Source: an uncultured Clostridia bacterium
GTDB lineage: Bacteria > Bacillota > Clostridia > Oscillospirales > CAG-272
Assembly: GCA_944391805.1 (NCBI GenBank)
Contig: CALXUY010000014.1
Span: forward strand, 32,222-96,221
DNA: 64,000 nucleotides
Reading direction: 5' to 3'
Part shown: positions 16,151 through 24,294 of the stretch, one piece after another
Layout of the letters: each line of letters starts with the position of its first letter
How positions within the stretch are numbered: the stretch's first letter is position 1
The notes under the pieces: generated by a model
What the model was told of the DNA's origin: nothing
The model's input: the letters and a program-made list of their open reading frames with translations, nothing else
Database searches by the model: none
Program-made: the position numbers and the translations under genes

Positions 16151-16304
16151 CGGCCGATTGTAAAAAGCCTTGAGACTCTGATCAAGCCGACCGCATACCA
16201 AGGCATACGCTTTTATGGTGATTGGTGACGGTTTTGATCAACATGCCTGCACGTTTTACATTACAATCGGCTATGAGCATACTGAACGAAGGAGAACATC
16301 TGTT

Positions 16305-19300
16305 GTGTATCTGAAATCACTGGAAATGCAGGGCTTCAAATCCTTTCCGGACAAGACCCGCCTGCTGTTTGATAGGGGCGGGGAGGAGACGGCGGAGGAC
16401 GGAGCCTCGCAGGGCGTCACGGTCATCGTCGGGCCGAACGGCTCGGGCAAATCCAACATCGCCGATGCGATGCGCTGGGTGCTGGGTGAAATTTCATCCA
16501 AAAGCCTGCGCGGCAGCAAGATGGAGGACGTCATTTTCGGAGGGGCGGACAGCCGGCGGCCGATGGGCTATGCCGAGGTGTCGGTGACCTTTGACAACCG
16601 CGGCGATTTTGCCAAGCTGGATTGCCCATACGACGAGGTCACCGTGACCCGCCGTTACTACCGCGCCGGGGACAGCGAATATTTCATCAACCGCAAGGCG
16701 GTGCGCCTGCGGGATATTTACGAGCTGTTTATGAACACCGGCATCGGGCGGGACGGCTATTCCATCATCGGGCAGGGGCGCATTGCCGAGATGGTCTCCC
16801 GGAAGAGCGAGGATCGCAGAAGCACCTTTGAGGACGCCTCGGGCATCGCGAAATACCGCCACCGCAAAACCGAGTCCGAGCGCAAGCTGGCCGAGACCGA
16901 GGACAATATGAACCGGCTGAACGACATTTTCTCCGAGGTTTCCGCGCAGGTCGGGCCGCTGCAGAAGGAGGCCGAAAAGGCCAAACGGGCGATCGAGCTG
17001 CTCGAAAACAAGAAGCGCGCCGATGTAAGCCTGTGGCTCTATGACACCGAAAAGCTGCGCGGAGAGCTGACCGCTGCCGAGGAGGCCATGCAGCATGCGT
17101 CGTTCGATCTGCAAACCGCCGAGGACAGCCTGCAATCGCTCGAGGCGCAGAACACCAGACTGTTCGACGCCTCCCAAAGCAGCCGGCAGGAGAGCGAGCA
17201 GCTTCTCGCCCGCATTCAGGAGCAGACCGAACGCTGCCATGAGCTGGAGAGCCGGCAGCGCGTGGCCGAAAACAGCATTTCGCACGCAAAGGAGCTGATC
17301 GAAGCCACAAGGGTCAGCGCGGAGGGGACCGAAGCCTCGGTCCGCGCCGAGCAGGAGGCCGTTGCGGCACATACGCAAAAGCTCGCCGGACTGGCGGAGC
17401 AGTCTGCCGGGCTGAACGCCGAGCGGGAGAAGCTGTCCGCCGAGCAGGCGTCGCTTGAGAGCAGGGAGGCCGGACTGGAGGAGAAGATTGCGCAGGCTCT
17501 CGACGACATCCGCTCTCTGGAGACCGAGCAGATGGATGTGCGCGTGCGCATCTCGGTCCTGGAAAATGCAAGAACCAGCGATTCGGACAAGAACAGCTCG
17601 GCGCTGCAGGAGCTGGACGGCTACCAACGGGTGTCCGACGAGCTGGGAGCGCAGTGCGCCTCCAAAAAGCAGACCGTTGACGGCTATGACGCCGAAATCG
17701 CCGGCATTGACCGGGAGCTGACCGAGCTTGGAGAGCGGTTGGAGACTGCCGCCGCCGAGCTGCGCGCGGGCACCGATTCCTGCAACAACGCCCGTTTCCG
17801 CAGGGATTCGGTCGCCCAGCGCATTGCAACCATCCGCTCGATGGAAGAGCATTTCGAGGGCTATTCCGGCGCGGTCAGATATGTGATGAAACAGTATGAC
17901 GAAGGCCGCATCACCGACGCGACCGGTGCGCGCTGCGGTGTGATCTATGGCCCGCTCTCCAAGGTGATTGCGGTGGACGACCCGTATATCACCGCACTCG
18001 AGATTGCGCTGGGAGCCAATCTCCAGAACATCGTGGTGCAGGACGAGGCCACCGCCAAAGCGGCCATGTATGCGCTCAAGCGGGGCGAGGCCGGACGGGC
18101 CACCTTCTTTCCGCTCACCTCCATGCGCGCTTCAGCCCCAAGCCGCGAGCTGACCGAAGCGGCGGGCTTTCGCGGCTACATCGGCGTGGCCGACAGTCTG
18201 GTCAGCGCCGACGATAAATTCCGCAGCGTGCTTTCCTCTCTGCTCGGCAGAACCGTGGTGTTCGACAGCATCAATCACGCCACGGCCATGGCCAAGGCGC
18301 TGCATTACCGGGTTCGCGCGGTCACGCTGGACGGCCAGCTCATCAATGTGGGCGGCTCGTTCACCGGCGGCTCGGTGCGCACAGGCAGCGGCATTCTCTC
18401 CCGCGCGGGCGAGATCAAGCGGCTGGAGGGCGAGCTGGAGCAGTGTAAGCGAACCGTTTCCGAAATGGAAAAGCGATTGTCCGATCTGCAGGAGCAGATC
18501 GAGGAGACGGAGCAGCAGCGAAAAGCGGCCGAGGATCGCCGCGAGCTGATTGCGGTGCTCCGCAATACCGAAAACGGACAGCTCGAGCAGCTTCGCGCCA
18601 AGCTGGACGCCAACAACACGCTGCTCGAAAGGCTGATGGATGATACCCGGCAGCTGCAGGAGGCAAAGCAGCGATACGAGGAGGATCTCGGCCGCCTGAC
18701 GGTTGAGGAGAAGGAGCTGAAGCGCCGCATCGGCGAGATGCAGGCCTTTCGCGCGGAAAAGGATGCCGAACGGGGGGAGACCGTCCTGCAAAAGGAGGAG
18801 ATTTCCCGCAGGCTGACCGATCTGCACATCCGCATCAGCGAAGCACAGAAGGATATGGAAACCGAGTGCACGCTCCGGCAAAATGCCGAGGCGCGCATCG
18901 CCTCCTTCTCACAGGAGCTGGAGACGCTGCATGCGCGCATCCGGGCACAGGAGGAGCAGATTGCGGCCACGCTCGCCTCGATCGAGACCGACCGTGCCGA
19001 GCTGAAGTCAGGCAGCGAGCTGCTCGGGCAGCTCAACGCGCGGCGCACCGAGGTGGAGAAGGGAAATCAGGAGTTTGAAAAAAAGCTCAATGATCTGAAC
19101 GCCCGTATGCGGGACAAGATGAATCAGAAGGAGCTGATTTTCCGGGAGTATACCAAGTGCGAGAGCAAGCTGGCCAGCCTGCGGGAAACGCAGGATAAGC
19201 TGGCGGGCAAGCTCTGGGAGGAATACGAGATGACCCGCAACGATGCGGTCGCGCTCGGCTATCCGCCTCTGACAAAGGAGACCCGCCCGGAAATGCTTGC

Positions 19301-19973
19301 CCTGCAAACCGAGTGTAAGAACAAGCTGCGTGTCATCGGGCATGTGGATCTCGACGCTGTGAACAAGTATGAGGAGGTCCGCGTGCGCTATGAAAAGATG
19401 AAGGAGCAATTGGAGGATCTCGAAAAGGCCAAGCGGGAGCTGAACGACATCATCGGTCAGCTTGAGGGCGAGATGAAGACCGCCTTTGTGGATTCCTTCA
19501 ATAAAATCAACGAGAATTTTGGAAAGGTGTTCGCCGAGCTGTTCGGCGGCGGATCGGCCGAGCTTTCGCTGACCGATCCCGAGAACGTTCTCGAAAGCGG
19601 CATCGAGATCCGGGCCGCTCCTCCCGGTAAAATCATCAAAAGCCTCATGCAGCTCTCGGGCGGCGAGCAGGCGTTCATCGGTGTGGCGCTCTTCTTTGCC
19701 ATTCTGCAGGTCAATCCCACGCCGTTCTGTATTCTCGACGAGATTGAGGCCGCACTGGACGAGGTCAATGTGGAGCGTCTGGCGCAGTACATCAAGCGCT
19801 ATTCACACGGCACCCAGTTTATTATGATTACGCACCGCCGCGGAACCATGGCGGCGGCGGACCGGCTCTACGGCGTCACCATGCCGGAGCATGGCATTTC
19901 CAAGGTGCTGATGCTGAATATCAACGATATTTCCAAGAAGAAAGGAGAGGACTGGGATGGGATTTTTGGATAA
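16305..19973 (+). CDS. smc: Chromosome partition protein Smc
   Basis: GTG 16305, 9 nt after GGAGA, gives [17 protein letters not shown]... Walker [10 protein letters not shown], long coiled coils, hinge, C-terminal LSGGEQ signature and Walker [11 protein letters not shown]. Confidence 0.95.
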
Positions 19974-21603
19974 ACTGTTCGGCAGAAAGAAGCGGGAAAA
20001 GGAAGAAGCCGCCCGATTGGCGGAGGAACAGGCCCGCGCCGAAGCAGAAGCCAAAGCTTGTGCCGAGGCAGAAGCGAAAGCCAGAGCCGAGGCAGAAGCC
20101 AAGGCCGAGGCAGAAGCAAAAGCCAAAGCCGAGGCAGAAGCGAAAGCCAAGGCTGAAGCGGAAGCAAAGGCCAAAGGTGAGGCAGAAGCGAAAGCCAAAG
20201 CCGAAGCAGAGGCGAAAGCCAAGGCCGAGGCAGAAGCAAAAGCCAAGGCCGAGGCAGAGGCGAAAGCCAAAGCGGAAGCAAAGGCCAAAGCCGAGGCAGA
20301 GGCGAAAGCCAAAGCTGAGGCGGAAGCAAAAGCCAAAGCTGAGGCGGAAGCAAAAGCCAAAGCCGAGGCAGAGGCGAAAGCCAAGGCCGAGGCAGAGGCG
20401 AAAGCCAGAGCCGAAGCAGAGGCGAAAGCCAAAGCCGAAGCAGAGGCAAAGGCCAAAGCTGAGGCAGAAGCGAAAGCCAAAGCCGAGGCGGAAGCAAAGG
20501 CCAAAGCGGAAGCGGAAGCAAAGGCCAAAGCTGAGGCGGAGGCAAAAGCCAAGGCCGAAGCGGAGGCGAAAGCCAGAGCTGAAGCGGAAGCAAAGGCCAA
20601 AGCGGAAGCGGAAGCGAAGGCCAAGGCCGAGGCAGAAGAAAAAGCCCGTGCCGAAGCAGAAGCGGACAGTCCGGAAACCCGCAAAAAGGAGAAAAAATCC
20701 TTCTGGGGACGGGTGAAGGAAGGGCTGACCAAGACCAAAAACGCGTTGTTCGGTCAGATTGACGATCTGCTCAAATCCTTTGTCAAGGTAGACGAGGAGC
20801 TGCTCGAGGAGCTGGAGGAGCTGCTGATCTGCGCCGATGTAGGCGTCAATTCCGCCGAGCAGATCATCGGGGAGCTGCGCGAGCAGGTCAAGGACGGCAG
20901 ACTCAAGGAGAAGGAACAGGTCATGTCGGCTCTGCGCGGCATTCTCGAGGGAATGATCGGCCCCGGGGAGCCCTTGAAGCTGGAAACACAGCCGTCGGTG
21001 ATCCTGATCATCGGCGTCAACGGAGTGGGAAAGACCACCTCCATCGGCAAAATCTCCAACCAACTGCGCAAGCAGGGCAAAAAGGTCATTGTGGCCGCTG
21101 CCGATACCTTCCGCGCCGCCGCCATCGATCAGCTTGCCGTCTGGTGCGAGCGCGCAAAGGTCGAGCTGGTGCGCCAGAATGAGGGGAGCGACCCCGCCGC
21201 CGTGGTATTTGACGCCTGCCATGCCGCAAAGAAAAAGAACGCCGATGTGCTCATCATCGATACGGCCGGCCGGCTGCACAACAAAACCAATCTGATGAAC
21301 GAGCTGGCAAAAATCAACCGCATCATCGACCGCGAGCTGCCCGGCGCTTCCCGGGAAAATCTGCTCGTGCTGGACGCCACAACCGGGCAGAACGCCATCA
21401 TTCAGGCGAAGGAGTTCAAAAACGCCGCGGCATTGACCGGACTGATTCTGAACAAGCTGGACGGAACCGCAAAGGGCGGAATTGTCATCTCCATCCGTCA
21501 GGAGCTGAATATTCCGGTCAAGTTCATCGGCGTGGGAGAGAAAATCGACGATATGCAGGAGTTCGATCAGGCAGAGTTTGTCAAAGCACTGTTTGAGAAC
21601 TGA
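19957..21603 (+). CDS. ftsY: Signal recognition particle receptor FtsY with a repeat-expanded N-terminal domain
   Basis: C-terminal NG domain ([31 protein letters not shown]). N-terminal [12 protein letters not shown], then about 211 aa of AEAEAKAK repeats. SD AAAGGAGAGG. Overlaps the smc end by 17 nt. rnc-smc-ftsY synteny. Confidence 0.93.
20032..20664 (+). repeat. In-frame tandem repeat, about 26 units of 24 bp, encoding (AEAEAKAK)n within ftsY
   Basis: 633 bp of GCN-GAR-GCN-GAR-GCN-AAR-GCN-AAR units. Units differ mostly at synonymous third positions. Two 18-bp units and rare R/C/G substitutions occur. Confidence 0.95.
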
Positions 21604-21615
21604 GGGGATATTAGG

Positions 21616-22224
21616 ATGAAACTGGTATTGGCGTCCCGGAACGCAAAAAAGATCAACGAACTGAAGGGCATTCTCCGGGAATGCTTCCCGGATGTCGAAA
21701 TTCTTTCACTGGATGATGTGGGAGTGACCGGCGAAATTGAAGAAACCGGCTCGACCTTTGAGGAAAACGCGCTGCTCAAGGCGCGCGCTGCCTCGATGGG
21801 GCGGTATATCGGCGTGGGGGACGACTCCGGCCTGACGGTGGATGCGCTGGGGGGTGAGCCGGGAATCTGGTCCGCCCGCTACGCCGAACGCCATCACTAT
21901 GCCGGCGGGCATGACGACGAGGCCAACAACCGCCTGCTGCTGGAACGGCTTGGATCGGTGCCGCAGGAGGAGCGCGGGGCAGCGTTTGTCTGCTGCATTG
22001 CCTGCGTTCTGCCGGACGGCCGCAGCTTTACCGTGCGGGGAGAGGTGCGGGGCAGCATCCTGCAGAGCTACCGGGGCAGTGGAGGCTTTGGCTATGATCC
22101 GCTGTTCTGGTATGAGCCGCTGGGCCGCAGCTTTGCTGAGCTGACCCCGGCGGAGAAGAACGCGGTATCCCACCGCGGCGTGGCGCTGCGGAAGTTTGCC
22201 GCACGGCTGCGGGAGGAGCTATGA
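21616..22224 (+). CDS. rdgB: Non-canonical purine NTP (dITP/XTP) pyrophosphatase RdgB/HAM1 family
   Basis: 202 aa, MKLVLASRNAKKINELKGIL, FGYDPLF and SHRG motifs. Confidence 0.92.
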   Translation: MKLVLASRNAKKINELKGILRECFPDVEILSLDDVGVTGEIEETGSTFEENALLKARAASMGRYIGVGDDSGLTVDALGGEPGIWSARYAERHHYAGGHDDEANNRLLLERLGSVPQEERGAAFVCCIACVLPDGRSFTVRGEVRGSILQSYRGSGGFGYDPLFWYEPLGRSFAELTPAEKNAVSHRGVALRKFAARLREEL

Positions 22225-22709
22225 GAGAGATGAAATTTTCGGATTATTTTTTCGCACCCGGCGTCCGGCCGCTCTCCACCATTCTCGGGGTTCTGCTGGG
22301 CTGCGTGGTCGGGCTGTTTGGCGGCTGGCAGATCGGTGTGCTGGTCGGCGCATCGGCGGCTGTTCTGCTCTCTGTGATCATTCCGATTGCCATATATCGG
22401 GAGGATGCGCCGTATGCCAAGCTGAAAAAGACGCTGCAGCGCCCCTTTCTCTTCGACGAACGTGTGCGGTTCACGGTGCGTGACGGCAGTGTCAGCGGAT
22501 ACTTCATTCTGACCGAGCACAGCATGGTGTTTCTCTCGCTGGATCGGGGTGTTCACCGGATGGAGCTGGTGCGGGAGGACGTGAAGTCGGTCATTCTCGG
22601 GGAGGATTCCAGCCTGAGCATTTTTCTGAGCAATACCCAGTTCATCCGGGTGCTGTCCGCCGCCTGCACAGAGATGTTCCGCGTGCTGCGGGAGAACGGC
22701 TGGGCATAG
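22221..22709 (+). CDS. Hypothetical membrane protein (two TM helices plus a PH/GRAM-like C-terminal domain)
   Basis: 162 aa. ATGA overlap with the rdgB stop. Hydrophobic segments LSTILGVLLGCVVGLFGGW and VLVGASAAVLLSVIIPIAI. Confidence 0.6.
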   Translation: MREMKFSDYFFAPGVRPLSTILGVLLGCVVGLFGGWQIGVLVGASAAVLLSVIIPIAIYREDAPYAKLKKTLQRPFLFDERVRFTVRDGSVSGYFILTEHSMVFLSLDRGVHRMELVREDVKSVILGEDSSLSIFLSNTQFIRVLSAACTEMFRVLRENGWA

Positions 22710-22735
22710 CTTTGAATCGGAAACGGAGAGGATAG

Positions 22736-23038
22736 ATGATGATGACATCCAAGCAAAGAGCGTATTTGCGCGGGCTTGCGAACGACATTCCCGCGATCAT
22801 GCAGGTGGGCAAGGGGGGCATTTCGGAACCGCTTGTCAAAACCTGCTCCGACGCGCTGGAGGCGCGCGAGCTGATCAAGCTGCACATTCTGGACAACAGC
22901 GGTCAGCCTCCACGGGCGGTTGCCGATGCACTGGCAGAGCGCCTGCATGCCGAGGTGGTGGCTGTGACCGGCAAAAAGGCCGTGTTTTACCGCCGCTCTG
23001 CCGGCAAACCGGTCATCGAGCTGCCGGAGCGGACATGA
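22736..23038 (+). CDS. yhbY: Ribosome assembly RNA-binding protein YhbY (CRM domain)
   Basis: 100 aa, TSKQRAYLRGLANDIPAIMQVGKGGISEPLVKTCSDALEARELIKL. Confidence 0.88.
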   Translation: MMMTSKQRAYLRGLANDIPAIMQVGKGGISEPLVKTCSDALEARELIKLHILDNSGQPPRAVADALAERLHAEVVAVTGKKAVFYRRSAGKPVIELPERT

Positions 23039-23652
23039 CCCGCATCGGCATTTACGGAGGGACCTTCTCCCCGCCGCACAACGGCCATCTGGCTGCGGCC
23101 AAGGCGTTTATGGAGCAGATGTGGCTGGATCTGCTGTACGTGATTCCCACTGCGCTTCCGCCGCACAAGGAGATGGAGTGCCCGGTTTCGGCTGCCCACC
23201 GGCTGGAGATGTGCCGCCTGGCCTTTTCCGGCGTCGATGGCGTGTATGTGAGCGATATGGAGATCCGGCGGGGCGGGCGGAGCTACACCGTGGACACCCT
23301 GCGGGAGCTTTCGGGGGATGACCGGCGGCTGTTTCTGCTCTGCGGAACCGACATGATGCTCACGCTGGATGAATGGCGCGCGCCCGAGGAAATTTTCCGG
23401 CTCTGCTACCCGGTCTATATCCGCCGTGACAGAGACGCTTCGCTTGACGCGCAGATTGTGCGGAAAATTGCGGAATATCAGGCAAAGTACGGCAAGGTGG
23501 TGCGCCGGATCGTGGCCGAACCGGTGGTGCTTTCGTCAAGCGAAATCCGGGATGCCATCCGCGCCGGCCGTCCTGTGAGCGGTAAACTGCCGCCTGCGGT
23601 AGAAAGATACATTTCAGACAATCATTTATACGTTTCAAACATCGGAAGGTGA
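23035..23652 (+). CDS. nadD: Nicotinate-nucleotide adenylyltransferase
   Basis: IGIYGGTFSPPHNGHL (H/TxGH motif), 205 aa, ATGA overlap with yhbY. Confidence 0.93.
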   Translation: MTRIGIYGGTFSPPHNGHLAAAKAFMEQMWLDLLYVIPTALPPHKEMECPVSAAHRLEMCRLAFSGVDGVYVSDMEIRRGGRSYTVDTLRELSGDDRRLFLLCGTDMMLTLDEWRAPEEIFRLCYPVYIRRDRDASLDAQIVRKIAEYQAKYGKVVRRIVAEPVVLSSSEIRDAIRAGRPVSGKLPPAVERYISDNHLYVSNIGR

Positions 23653-24294
23653 GTGATAATGATAGAGATTACCGAACCAATGCTGGACGGGCTGCGGGAG
23701 TCTGTCCTGTCCCGGCTTTCCGCCAAGCGGTTCCGCCATACGGTGGCGGTGGAGCAGATGGTAGTCCGGCTGTGCGAGCTGTACTGTCCCGACCAGACCG
23801 CACGCCTGCGCGCGGCGGCATTGCTGCACGACCTGACCAAGGAGCTGACCCCTGCGGAGCAGGAGTCGCTCTGCGCTTCGCTGGGACTGCCGGTCTCTCC
23901 GCAGGACCGGCTCGCCCCCAAGACCTTTCATGCCCGAACCGCAGCAGCGCTGATACCGGAGGAATTTCCGGAATTTGCCGATCATGTCATTGTCTCGGCG
24001 GTGCGCTGGCACACCACCGGCCGCAGGGAGATGACCCTGACCGAAAAGCTGCTGTATCTGGCCGATTATATCGACGAATCCCGCAGCTTTGAAAACTGCG
24101 TGCTCCTCCGGCGCTATTTCTGGGGAGCCGGGCCGCAGGAGCTGACGCCCGAGAGGCGGGAGGCGCTGCTGCGGGACACGCTGATCCTCTCCTATGACAT
24201 GACCATCCGCGATCTGCTGTCCGAGCATGCCCCGGTGGCCGAGGAGACGATCGAAGCCCGCAATGAGCTGCTCTTGGAGGCGGCGCAGGCCTGA
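23653..24294 (+). CDS. yqeK: HD-domain bis(5'-nucleosyl)-tetraphosphatase YqeK
   Basis: RFRHTVAVE...LLHDLTKE...VRWHTTG...LLYLADYIDESR HD motifs, immediately after nadD. Confidence 0.88.
   Translation: MIMIEITEPMLDGLRESVLSRLSAKRFRHTVAVEQMVVRLCELYCPDQTARLRAAALLHDLTKELTPAEQESLCASLGLPVSPQDRLAPKTFHARTAAALIPEEFPEFADHVIVSAVRWHTTGRREMTLTEKLLYLADYIDESRSFENCVLLRRYFWGAGPQELTPERREALLRDTLILSYDMTIRDLLSEHAPVAEETIEARNELLLEAAQA

Follow-up and report, generated by a model that had tools for sequence, protein, structure and literature searches.

A fast-evolving AEAEAKAK repeat, probably a soluble helical spacer, in FtsY of an uncultured Clostridia bacterium and its relatives

The window analysed here is a 64,000-nucleotide stretch of contig CALXUY010000014.1 from an uncultured gut Clostridia bacterium, and it contains a gene for FtsY, the receptor of the signal recognition particle (SRP), whose product carries a long tandem array of AEAEAKAK octapeptides ahead of its NG GTPase. 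The identity of the gene, proposed earlier in a sequence-only reading of this DNA, is secure: the 548-residue protein matches the NCBIfam equivalog TIGR00064 (ftsY) with 353.5 bits against a cutoff of 260.7, Pfam recognizes both domains of the NG core, and the solved Escherichia coli and Thermotoga maritima FtsY structures match at an E-value of about 1e-87. All five G motifs are intact (G1 GVNGVGKT at residue 353, DTFR at 383, DTAGR at 435, NKLD at 499 and GVGE at 525). As that reading also had it, the array lies between a short, conserved, amphipathic N-terminal motif and the NG domain, an architecture that can be read directly from the open reading frame (ORF). From N to C terminus, the protein would thus comprise a MinD-like cationic amphipathic motif, a spacer of ~210 residues, a proline-containing hinge, the canonical membrane-targeting helix and the NG GTPase.

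Tandem Repeats Finder delimits the array at 20038-20663 (period 24, 26.6 copies, 80% matches, score 636), and no other tandem repeat scoring 80 or more is present in the window. Codon-wise segmentation resolves it into 24 units of eight residues and two of six, followed by a degenerate final unit, AEAEADSP. Among the octapeptides, 18 read AEAEAKAK and three AEAEAKAR, and AEAEAKAC, GEAEAKAK and AEAEEKAR occur once each. The sequence-only reading had described 211 residues at 20032-20664, in about 26 units of which two are short, with R, C and G substitutions. Its end point and its description hold, while its start lies 6 nucleotides (nt) upstream of the first unit at 20038 and the E substitution in AEAEEKAR went unmentioned. 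Residues 28-236 consist of 103 Ala, 54 Glu, 46 Lys, four Arg, one Cys and one Gly, so that 50% are charged and 49% are Ala, with a net charge of -4 over 209 residues (54 E versus 46 K plus 4 R). The lone Cys, in unit 1 (TGT, residue 35, 20059-20061), is Arg (CGT or CGC) in two assemblies of the same species (L081 and L082) and stems from one C-to-T substitution that is specific to the window.

As DNA, 21 of the 24 octapeptide units are distinct. Pairwise comparison of the window units counted 891 synonymous against 145 non-synonymous codon differences (~6:1), which agrees with the earlier proposal of selection on the peptide and fits strong purifying selection acting on it. Codon usage in the tract also departs from that of its surroundings: GAA has a share of 54%, versus 14-21% in the rest of ftsY and smc, and AAA a share of 70% versus 24-42%, while T is nearly absent from the coding strand (11 of 627 bases). 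Two families of linked haplotypes can be told apart among the units, with GCA..GCG and GCG..GCA at codons 3 and 5, along with a few recombinants between them. The longest exact internal repeat is 35 nt.

Table 1. Positions of ftsY features in the window
Feature	Position	Strand	Residues	Remarks
ftsY coding sequence	19957..21603	+	548 plus stop	ORF call, domain and structure matches
Shine-Dalgarno-like AAAGGAGAGG (GGAG-type ribosome-binding site)	19941..19950	+		6 nt 5' of ftsY ATG, within smc 3' end; read from sequence
N-terminal motif (membrane-targeting sequence 1, MTS1), 12 residues	19957..19992	+	1-12	predicted cationic amphipathic lipid-binding helix
Charged lead-in, 15 residues	19993..20037	+	13-27	part of predicted continuous helix
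(AEAEAKAK)n tandem array	20038..20664	+	28-236	Tandem Repeats Finder and codon-wise segmentation
Six-residue unit AEAEAK	20086..20103	+	44-49
Six-residue unit AEAKAK	20272..20289	+	106-111
Helix-breaking hinge DSPETRK	20665..20685	+	237-243	single-sequence AlphaFold break at 237-238
Essential-type FtsY membrane-targeting helix (MTS2), 19 residues	20686..20742	+	244-262
N domain, SRP54_N helical bundle (PF02881)	20746..20937	+	264-327	Pfam
G domain, SRP54 GTPase (PF00448)	20992..21594	+	346-546	Pfam

The tract is no peculiarity of the window genome. A scan with the NG domain, taking one genome per species, yielded 80 loci whose NG is 73-95% identical; all of them come from metagenome-assembled genomes (MAGs) of uncultured gut Clostridia/Oscillospiraceae, including Eubacterium sp. 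CAG:180. Linkers of the AEAEAKAK type occur in 23 of these 80 species-level genomes, with copy numbers from 3 to 33 units. Across the set the N-terminal motif and the NG core are conserved, and the linker between them is hypervariable in kind. For example, other loci have units of AEAEAKAQ (L019), AEAEAKEK (L006), AAKKAAEE (L009, L018, L039), EEKAKAEAAKAAA (L014) or REAEEQAK (L027, L032). Acidic repeats of the EETVEEAV, EEPVV, EEPAA or TEEE kind are found in L017, L045, L056, L059, L048, L033 and L071, and non-repetitive, P/E-rich linkers in L026, L029, L034, L036, L040 and L041; proteins of 301-302 residues, such as L062, L066, L067, L069 and L072, have no linker. A neighbour-joining tree of the NG domains was used for ordering only and carries no support values. 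The net charge of complete linkers runs from ~0 down to -48 (-10 to -48 for the acidic linkers of sister species) and is never positive, the sole positive value, +1, belonging to a truncated fragment (L020). Every one of the 63 loci whose 5' end is complete begins with M[GA]FLDKLFGKKK, has the same junction helix and keeps a single open frame from the N-terminal motif through NG. In protein clusters formed at 90% identity, the complete FtsYs combine a constant NG of 300 residues with 73-262 residues before it. A long N-terminal linker is the rule in this clade, and the generalization of the sequence-only reading that Firmicute FtsYs usually lack a long A domain is not applicable here. That reading had also held that a tract dispensable in orthologues and unconserved as a peptide would speak against it; the dispensability and the variable copy number seen among these species bear out part of this.

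The linkerless proteins offer a clue to the origin of the long forms. In the 301-residue sister FtsYs the N-terminal motif is the start of the membrane-targeting helix itself, and because the two are directly fused there, the linker appears to be the product of an insertion or duplication. We infer that the long forms may represent a duplicated helix start with low-complexity sequence grown between the copies.

A search of 1.84 billion representatives revealed A/E/K(R) repeat linkers in other FtsY lineages as well (P0288, P0290, P0326 and P0311). P0288 contains a 16-residue A/E/K(R) repeat in 13 copies, P0290 contains (EARAREEA)x20, and one lineage contains (AAEKAAAEKAEAERI)n. Repeats of the EAK type, which the sequence-only reading thought worth seeking in other SRP receptors, are present in a further FtsY, P0287. 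The terminal and junction motifs of P0288 resemble those of E. coli, which suggests a proteobacterial origin for it. Still other FtsYs start directly with the junction helix (P0287, P0294, P0298, P0309, P0316, P0331 and P0368), and these bear a C-terminal low-complexity extension ending in a KKKRGFFSRLFGRK-type motif (GFFxxLFGRK-type) or similar basic amphipathic ends, e.g. KKKERKGFFGLFGRKS and KKKKRGFFSRLFGRK. Their extensions are acidic, but P0287 has EAK/EAR repeats instead. A spacer with a terminal cationic amphipathic peptide is thus found at either end of the protein, as would be expected of an auxiliary membrane tether. In one unrelated FtsY lineage an A/E/K region comes after an N-terminal transmembrane anchor.

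The peptide also occurs outside FtsY. An idealized (AEAEAKAK)16 protein query returned only proteins shorter than 225 residues and no FtsY, and is not a census of SRP receptors. Literal AEAEAKAK runs are present in TolA proteins (P0177 and P0123), in the tail of SecG, in N-terminal regions of IF-2, in the tails of ribosomal proteins S16 and L19, and in phage proteins. Since the runs recur in such different settings, the AEAEAKAK peptide is a recurrent bacterial spacer module rather than an FtsY-specific one. Several very large non-FtsY proteins, P0285 (1495 residues), P0286 (3954 residues), P0317 and P0380, contain [AD/AE]AEAKAKA tracts of several hundred residues, and over 200 residues P0285 shares 81% identity with the window tract.

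Comparison within the species shows how quickly the array changes. Three same-species contigs, L081 (GCA_964318585.1), L082 and L083, have flanks ~96-99.5% identical to those of the window, and encode FtsYs of 593, 585 and 593 residues versus 548; the same segmentation yields 32-33 units in these assemblies versus 27 in the window. Among the strains the first 81 nt of ftsY, including the whole N-terminal motif, are 100% identical and NG is 97.9-99.6% identical. The window tract aligns to its same-species counterparts at 87-89% in the best gapped alignments, which is barely above the 76-83% obtained when it is aligned to itself out of register. Nor is there a conserved order in which unit variants follow one another, and the exact blocks shared between the window array and the others are at most 53 nt long and non-collinear. 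By contrast, the arrays of L082 (663-1400) and L083 (3082-3843), which come from two different samples, are 99.7% identical. Exact matches of 239 and 449 nt run collinearly through both, and what separates the two arrays is a tandem duplication of three units (72 nt) together with a smaller deletion. This agreement across independent samples shows that reproducible assembly of such arrays is possible and that the unit-level indels are real.

Synonymous codons are fixed within arrays and differ between them. For example, the Ala codon at the seventh residue is GCC in 22 of 22 window units versus GCA in 27 of 27 units of L047, and the first-residue Ala codon is GCA in all 17 units of L005. These patterns point to concerted evolution. 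The sequence-only reading had taken the synonymous diversity of the units as an argument against recent slippage, and this does not survive the comparison: with concerted evolution, an unconserved unit order and a 72-nt duplication between near-identical strains, unit-level synonymous diversity is no sign of an old or static array. Its expectation of a hotspot for length polymorphism and assembly breaks was, on the other hand, well founded. Besides the strain indels, the contig ends inside the linker at 13 of the 23 AEAEAKAK-type loci versus 3 of the 57 others, and the tract is a recombination or slippage hotspot and an assembly breakpoint. The AEAEAKAK loci whose 5' ends fall in the repeat are L001-L004, L007, L008, L011, L015, L020, L023, L024, L038 and L049; in L007, 16 unrelated residues precede the repeat, and this may be a chimeric contig end.

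What conformation might such a tract adopt? Within it, 98 of the 100 charged pairs at i/i+4 are opposite in sign (two are the same), and at i/i+8 charges are alike in 95 of 99 pairs (four are opposite). Its hydrophobic moment is ~0.05 as a helix (0.04-0.09) versus 0.6 as a strand. Run without an alignment, AlphaFold2 predicts a single uninterrupted helix over residues 3-236, mostly at a predicted local distance difference test (pLDDT) score of 70-87. The score falls to 56-62 near residues 121-140 and is below 50 at 129-131. The helix breaks at D237-S238-P239 alone, after which it resumes over residues 239-274, through the membrane-targeting helix. With an alignment of 40 sequences the prediction instead has three helices, separated by low-pLDDT gaps at 73-86 and 171-178; given the single helix of the single-sequence run, we attribute these gaps to the indel-ridden alignment of the repeats. 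Fully helical, the tract would be ~31 nm long. The helical E/K spacer envisaged by the sequence-only reading is accordingly the predicted conformation. A coiled coil was ruled out by inspection, as the period is 8 rather than 7 and Ala is the only apolar residue.

The ends of the spacer are more conserved than the spacer itself. The N-terminal GFLDKLFG(RKK) resembles the membrane-targeting sequence of E. coli MinD, KGFLKRLFGG (PMC5471200), with GFL..LFG matching, and residues F3, L4, L7 and F8 share one helical face. The MinD motif is C-terminal, whereas the GF(L/F)xxLFG motif stands at the N terminus of the window FtsY, where membrane binding is predicted; these similarities make it a candidate lipid-binding helix. 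At the other end, the acidic, proline-containing junction that follows the linker is conserved in relatives, and MTS2 is invariant in the alignment of 40 relatives (A1). MTS2 aligns with the E. coli FtsY segment KPTKEGFFARLKRSLLKTKENL, also given as KEGFFARLKRSLLKTKENL, and the two junction helices are homologous. In E. coli FtsY an essential lipid-binding helix lies at the A/N interface and a second, non-essential one at the extreme N terminus (PMC3128533).

Several known systems help to place the tract. In E. coli the A domain, acidic and disordered, serves as a tether from which NG searches the volume around the translocon (PMC5094494, PMC9099147), and its ends bind lipid (PMC5094494, PMC3128533). 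The window linker resembles it as a hydrophilic, non-conserved N-terminal region of ~200 residues flanked by two lipid-binding helices, of which the terminal one is here putative, and both are dispensable in some lineages. They differ in that the A domain is strongly acidic, non-repetitive, disordered by nuclear magnetic resonance and bound electrostatically to SecY loops, whereas the window tract is an eight-residue repeat with a net charge of about -4 and a predicted helix. A phmmer search for homology between the tract and the enterobacterial A domain gave low-confidence compositional matching only.

A second parallel is TolA, whose domain II is an extended alpha-helix of K/A/E repeats (PMC10666116) and whose gene has a strain-variable repeat, with 8-16 copies in E. 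coli and RecA-dependent contraction at about 7e-5 (PMC3477136). In TolA, as would be the case in the window FtsY, an Ala/Lys/Glu(Asp) repeat helix with strain-variable copies spaces a functional domain from a membrane anchor; TolA differs in being periplasmic, anchored by a transmembrane helix and force-transducing. On the window repeat TIGR02794, the equivalog model for TolA, reaches 76.2 bits against a curated cutoff of 59.45, which is a compositional false positive. Membership of the TolA family was rejected, as TIGR02794 and PRK09510 cover the repeat only, domains I (with its SHLS anchor) and III are missing and the rest of the protein is FtsY NG. MSCRAMM adhesin models also match the repeat (20038-20664).

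Canonical ER/K single alpha-helix (SAH) domains contain roughly three-quarters or more charged residues (E/K/R), and designed (EAAAK)n peptides serve as helical linkers. The window tract shares with the ER/K type a period-8 charge pattern, that of (E4K4)n with alternate residues replaced by Ala, together with the i/i+4 ladder of opposite charges, the lack of a hydrophobic seam and the prediction of a long isolated helix, and is unlike it in being only 50% charged and half Ala. Finally, the equivalence with EAK16-II noted by the sequence-only reading is exact: 13 in-register copies of this 16-residue peptide are present in the tract with identical sequence (PMC7889856). EAK16-II has been studied as a free 16-mer forming beta-sheet fibrils and hydrogels, whereas here the sequence is part of a ~210-residue, predicted helical tract in a cytosolic enzyme. 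There is no evolutionary relation between the tract and zuotin, which that reading had named as the source of the peptide.

We consider it probable that the tract serves as a soluble, helical tether between NG and a MinD-like lipid-binding motif. It would be a fast-evolving spacer, the local form of the A domain, with selection on composition and not on length. As a net-neutral Ala/Glu/Lys polyampholyte with an opposite charge four residues away from each charge, it most likely forms a single extended alpha-helix that is non-amphipathic and highly soluble. The extra N-terminal anchor would keep FtsY near the membrane while the NG domain retains a long reach, and the spacer would stick neither to the anionic membrane nor to itself. 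Selection keeps the frame open and the linker hydrophilic and non-cationic, and within this subclade it also preserves the AEAEAKAK pattern; copy number shifts rapidly by slippage or unequal recombination, with gene conversion between units. Both the helical state in vivo and the tethering function are suggested here by structure prediction and by analogy. To the ribosome-proximal tether, which the sequence-only reading had mentioned as another role, nothing points.

Some observations weigh against this interpretation. AlphaFold is prone to draw helices in low-complexity E/K/A sequence, and short EAK16 peptides are beta-sheets in vitro, so that the helix prediction could be wrong. With a net charge of -4 and a predicted ordered structure, the tract cannot simply be assigned the SecY-binding mechanism of E. 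coli. Copy numbers of 3-33 and absence from sister species imply that it is neither essential nor length-critical. Moreover, the comparative sequences are all metagenome assemblies and, for all but the window and L081, apparently from short reads to judge from the contig names.

Of the alternatives, the most credible is that the array is a neutral, self-propagating, low-complexity expansion, functionless and tolerated in a dispensable region of FtsY where in-frame gains and losses do no harm. The linkerless 301-residue orthologues, the 3-33 copies among close relatives, the unrelated low-complexity sequence at the same position in sister species and a turnover far above that of the flanks (87-89% identity in the tract versus 98-99% in NG) are all what such an expansion would produce. 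Yet synonymous variation is in strong excess over non-synonymous, the peptide is kept across species despite changed codons, the frame from motif to NG is open at all 63 complete loci, no complete linker is positively charged, the module recurs at the C terminus in other lineages and an N-terminal motif would be pointless if unconnected to NG; we therefore regard pure neutrality as unlikely. The tract could also be an adaptive, tunable ruler or contingency locus, a stiff helix of ~30-40 nm whose strain-variable copies set the distance at which NG captures the SRP-ribosome complex. A continuous predicted helix whose i/i+4 salt bridges are in perfect register, real indels of whole units that separate near-identical strains sampled independently and the adaptive repeat variation proposed for tolA (PMC3477136) would suit this idea, which, if true, would amount to a naturally adjustable reach for co-translational targeting and to a long EAK16 polymer soluble in vivo. 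The huge range of lengths and the predicted disordered, acidic linkers of sister species speak against any defined distance, however, and a charged fraction of 50% is below that of canonical ER/K helices, which makes a ruler improbable.

The peptide chemistry raises a further alternative, in which ionic, self-complementary beta-sheet assembly of the EAK16 kind drives FtsY clustering or builds a membrane-proximal meshwork. The 13 exact EAK16-II 16-mers, the high hydrophobic moment as a beta-strand (0.6 versus 0.05 as a helix) and the self-assembly of EAK16 in vitro (PMC7889856, PMC2387071) favour it. We nevertheless give it very little credence: AlphaFold draws helix and no strands, the same tracts make up TolA domain II, an extended helix, and the tails of soluble ribosomal proteins, IF-2 and SecG, the acidic repeats of sister species cannot self-complement, and aggregation driven by part of an essential cytosolic GTPase would probably be harmful. 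An origin of the tract, or of its length in the window, in mis-assembly of repeats is less credible still. The contig ends at 13 of the 23 MAG loci of this type, the exact look-up of the window protein that found no identical protein on record, and a window array non-collinear with the one in a strain 99.5% identical in its flanks might raise the suspicion. Against it, the tract recurs, always in frame, in dozens of independent assemblies, arrays from two independent samples are 99.7% identical save for clean unit indels, one exact 570-residue FtsY allele is present on 9 contigs, and the longest internal repeat is shorter than usual reads and the top k-mers. The existence of the tract is secure, while the exact copy number and unit order in the window are provisional; with internal repeats of at most 35 nt, that copy number is plausible. 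The window and L083 are 99.2% identical in NG and 99.5% in the downstream flank and their arrays differ by 135 nt, a mismatch that could stem from very rapid scrambling, from exchange of alleles or from a wrong assembly path in one of the two. A metagenome contig collection scanned with a 29-mer from the tract edge and a conserved 5' 38-mer gave 0 matches for each.

The surroundings of ftsY are conventional. Upstream, the smc ORF (16215-19973, +; stop at 19971-19973) overlaps the ftsY start by 17 nt, and the smc-ftsY order, which is also that of Bacillus subtilis, is found on same-species contigs. The mechanical SMC ORF from the first ATG is 1252 residues long; as the product called on a same-species contig has 1222 residues, the true smc start probably lies ~30 codons downstream of 16215. 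An rdgB/Ham1-like gene comes next after ftsY, and the order beyond it is conserved (window 21616-24294; L081 6797-10964): Ham1/RdgB, a 162-residue protein without a Pfam match, YhbY (CRS1), a NadD-like nucleotidyltransferase, an HD-domain protein, LytR_cpsA_psr, RsfS and a class I tRNA synthetase. Rfam gave no match in the ftsY region, and its only matches at the gathering threshold in the window are a lysine riboswitch at 51685-51855 (+; 75 bits) and a tRNA gene at 47534-47606 (-). Two further candidates were discarded. An NG-only isoform from an internal start is ruled out, as the first Met 3' of the tract is already inside the N domain. The overlapping ORFs in other frames across the tract, 218-452 residues long (19803-20738, 19868-20593 and 19921-21279 on the minus strand and 20060-20716 on the plus strand), are not taken as genes, since relatives conserve the FtsY frame alone; their length follows from a repeat that is stop-free in five of six frames.

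That FtsY proteins vary in their N-terminal regions is established (PMC9425974, PMC6821194), and our literature search found no paper on AEAEAKAK-type repeats in FtsY. What appears to be new here is a regular, net-neutral, predicted-helical analogue of the A domain that evolves in concert. Practical cautions follow from it, namely that the tract breaks short-read assemblies, that copy numbers from MAGs are unreliable, and that compositional matches, such as that to the TolA equivalog above its cutoff, may mislabel such proteins. More broadly, these FtsY proteins offer a ready-made series of natural linker alleles against which to test the tether model of the A domain, so far studied almost only in E. 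coli, with A/E/K repeats of 3-33 units, acidic linkers, P/E-rich linkers, no linker at all and a C-terminal version. In addition, the natural use of EAK16-II as a long polymer within a cytosolic protein that is essential suggests that this sequence is a soluble helix in vivo, which bears on peptide materials and on the engineering of rigid linkers.

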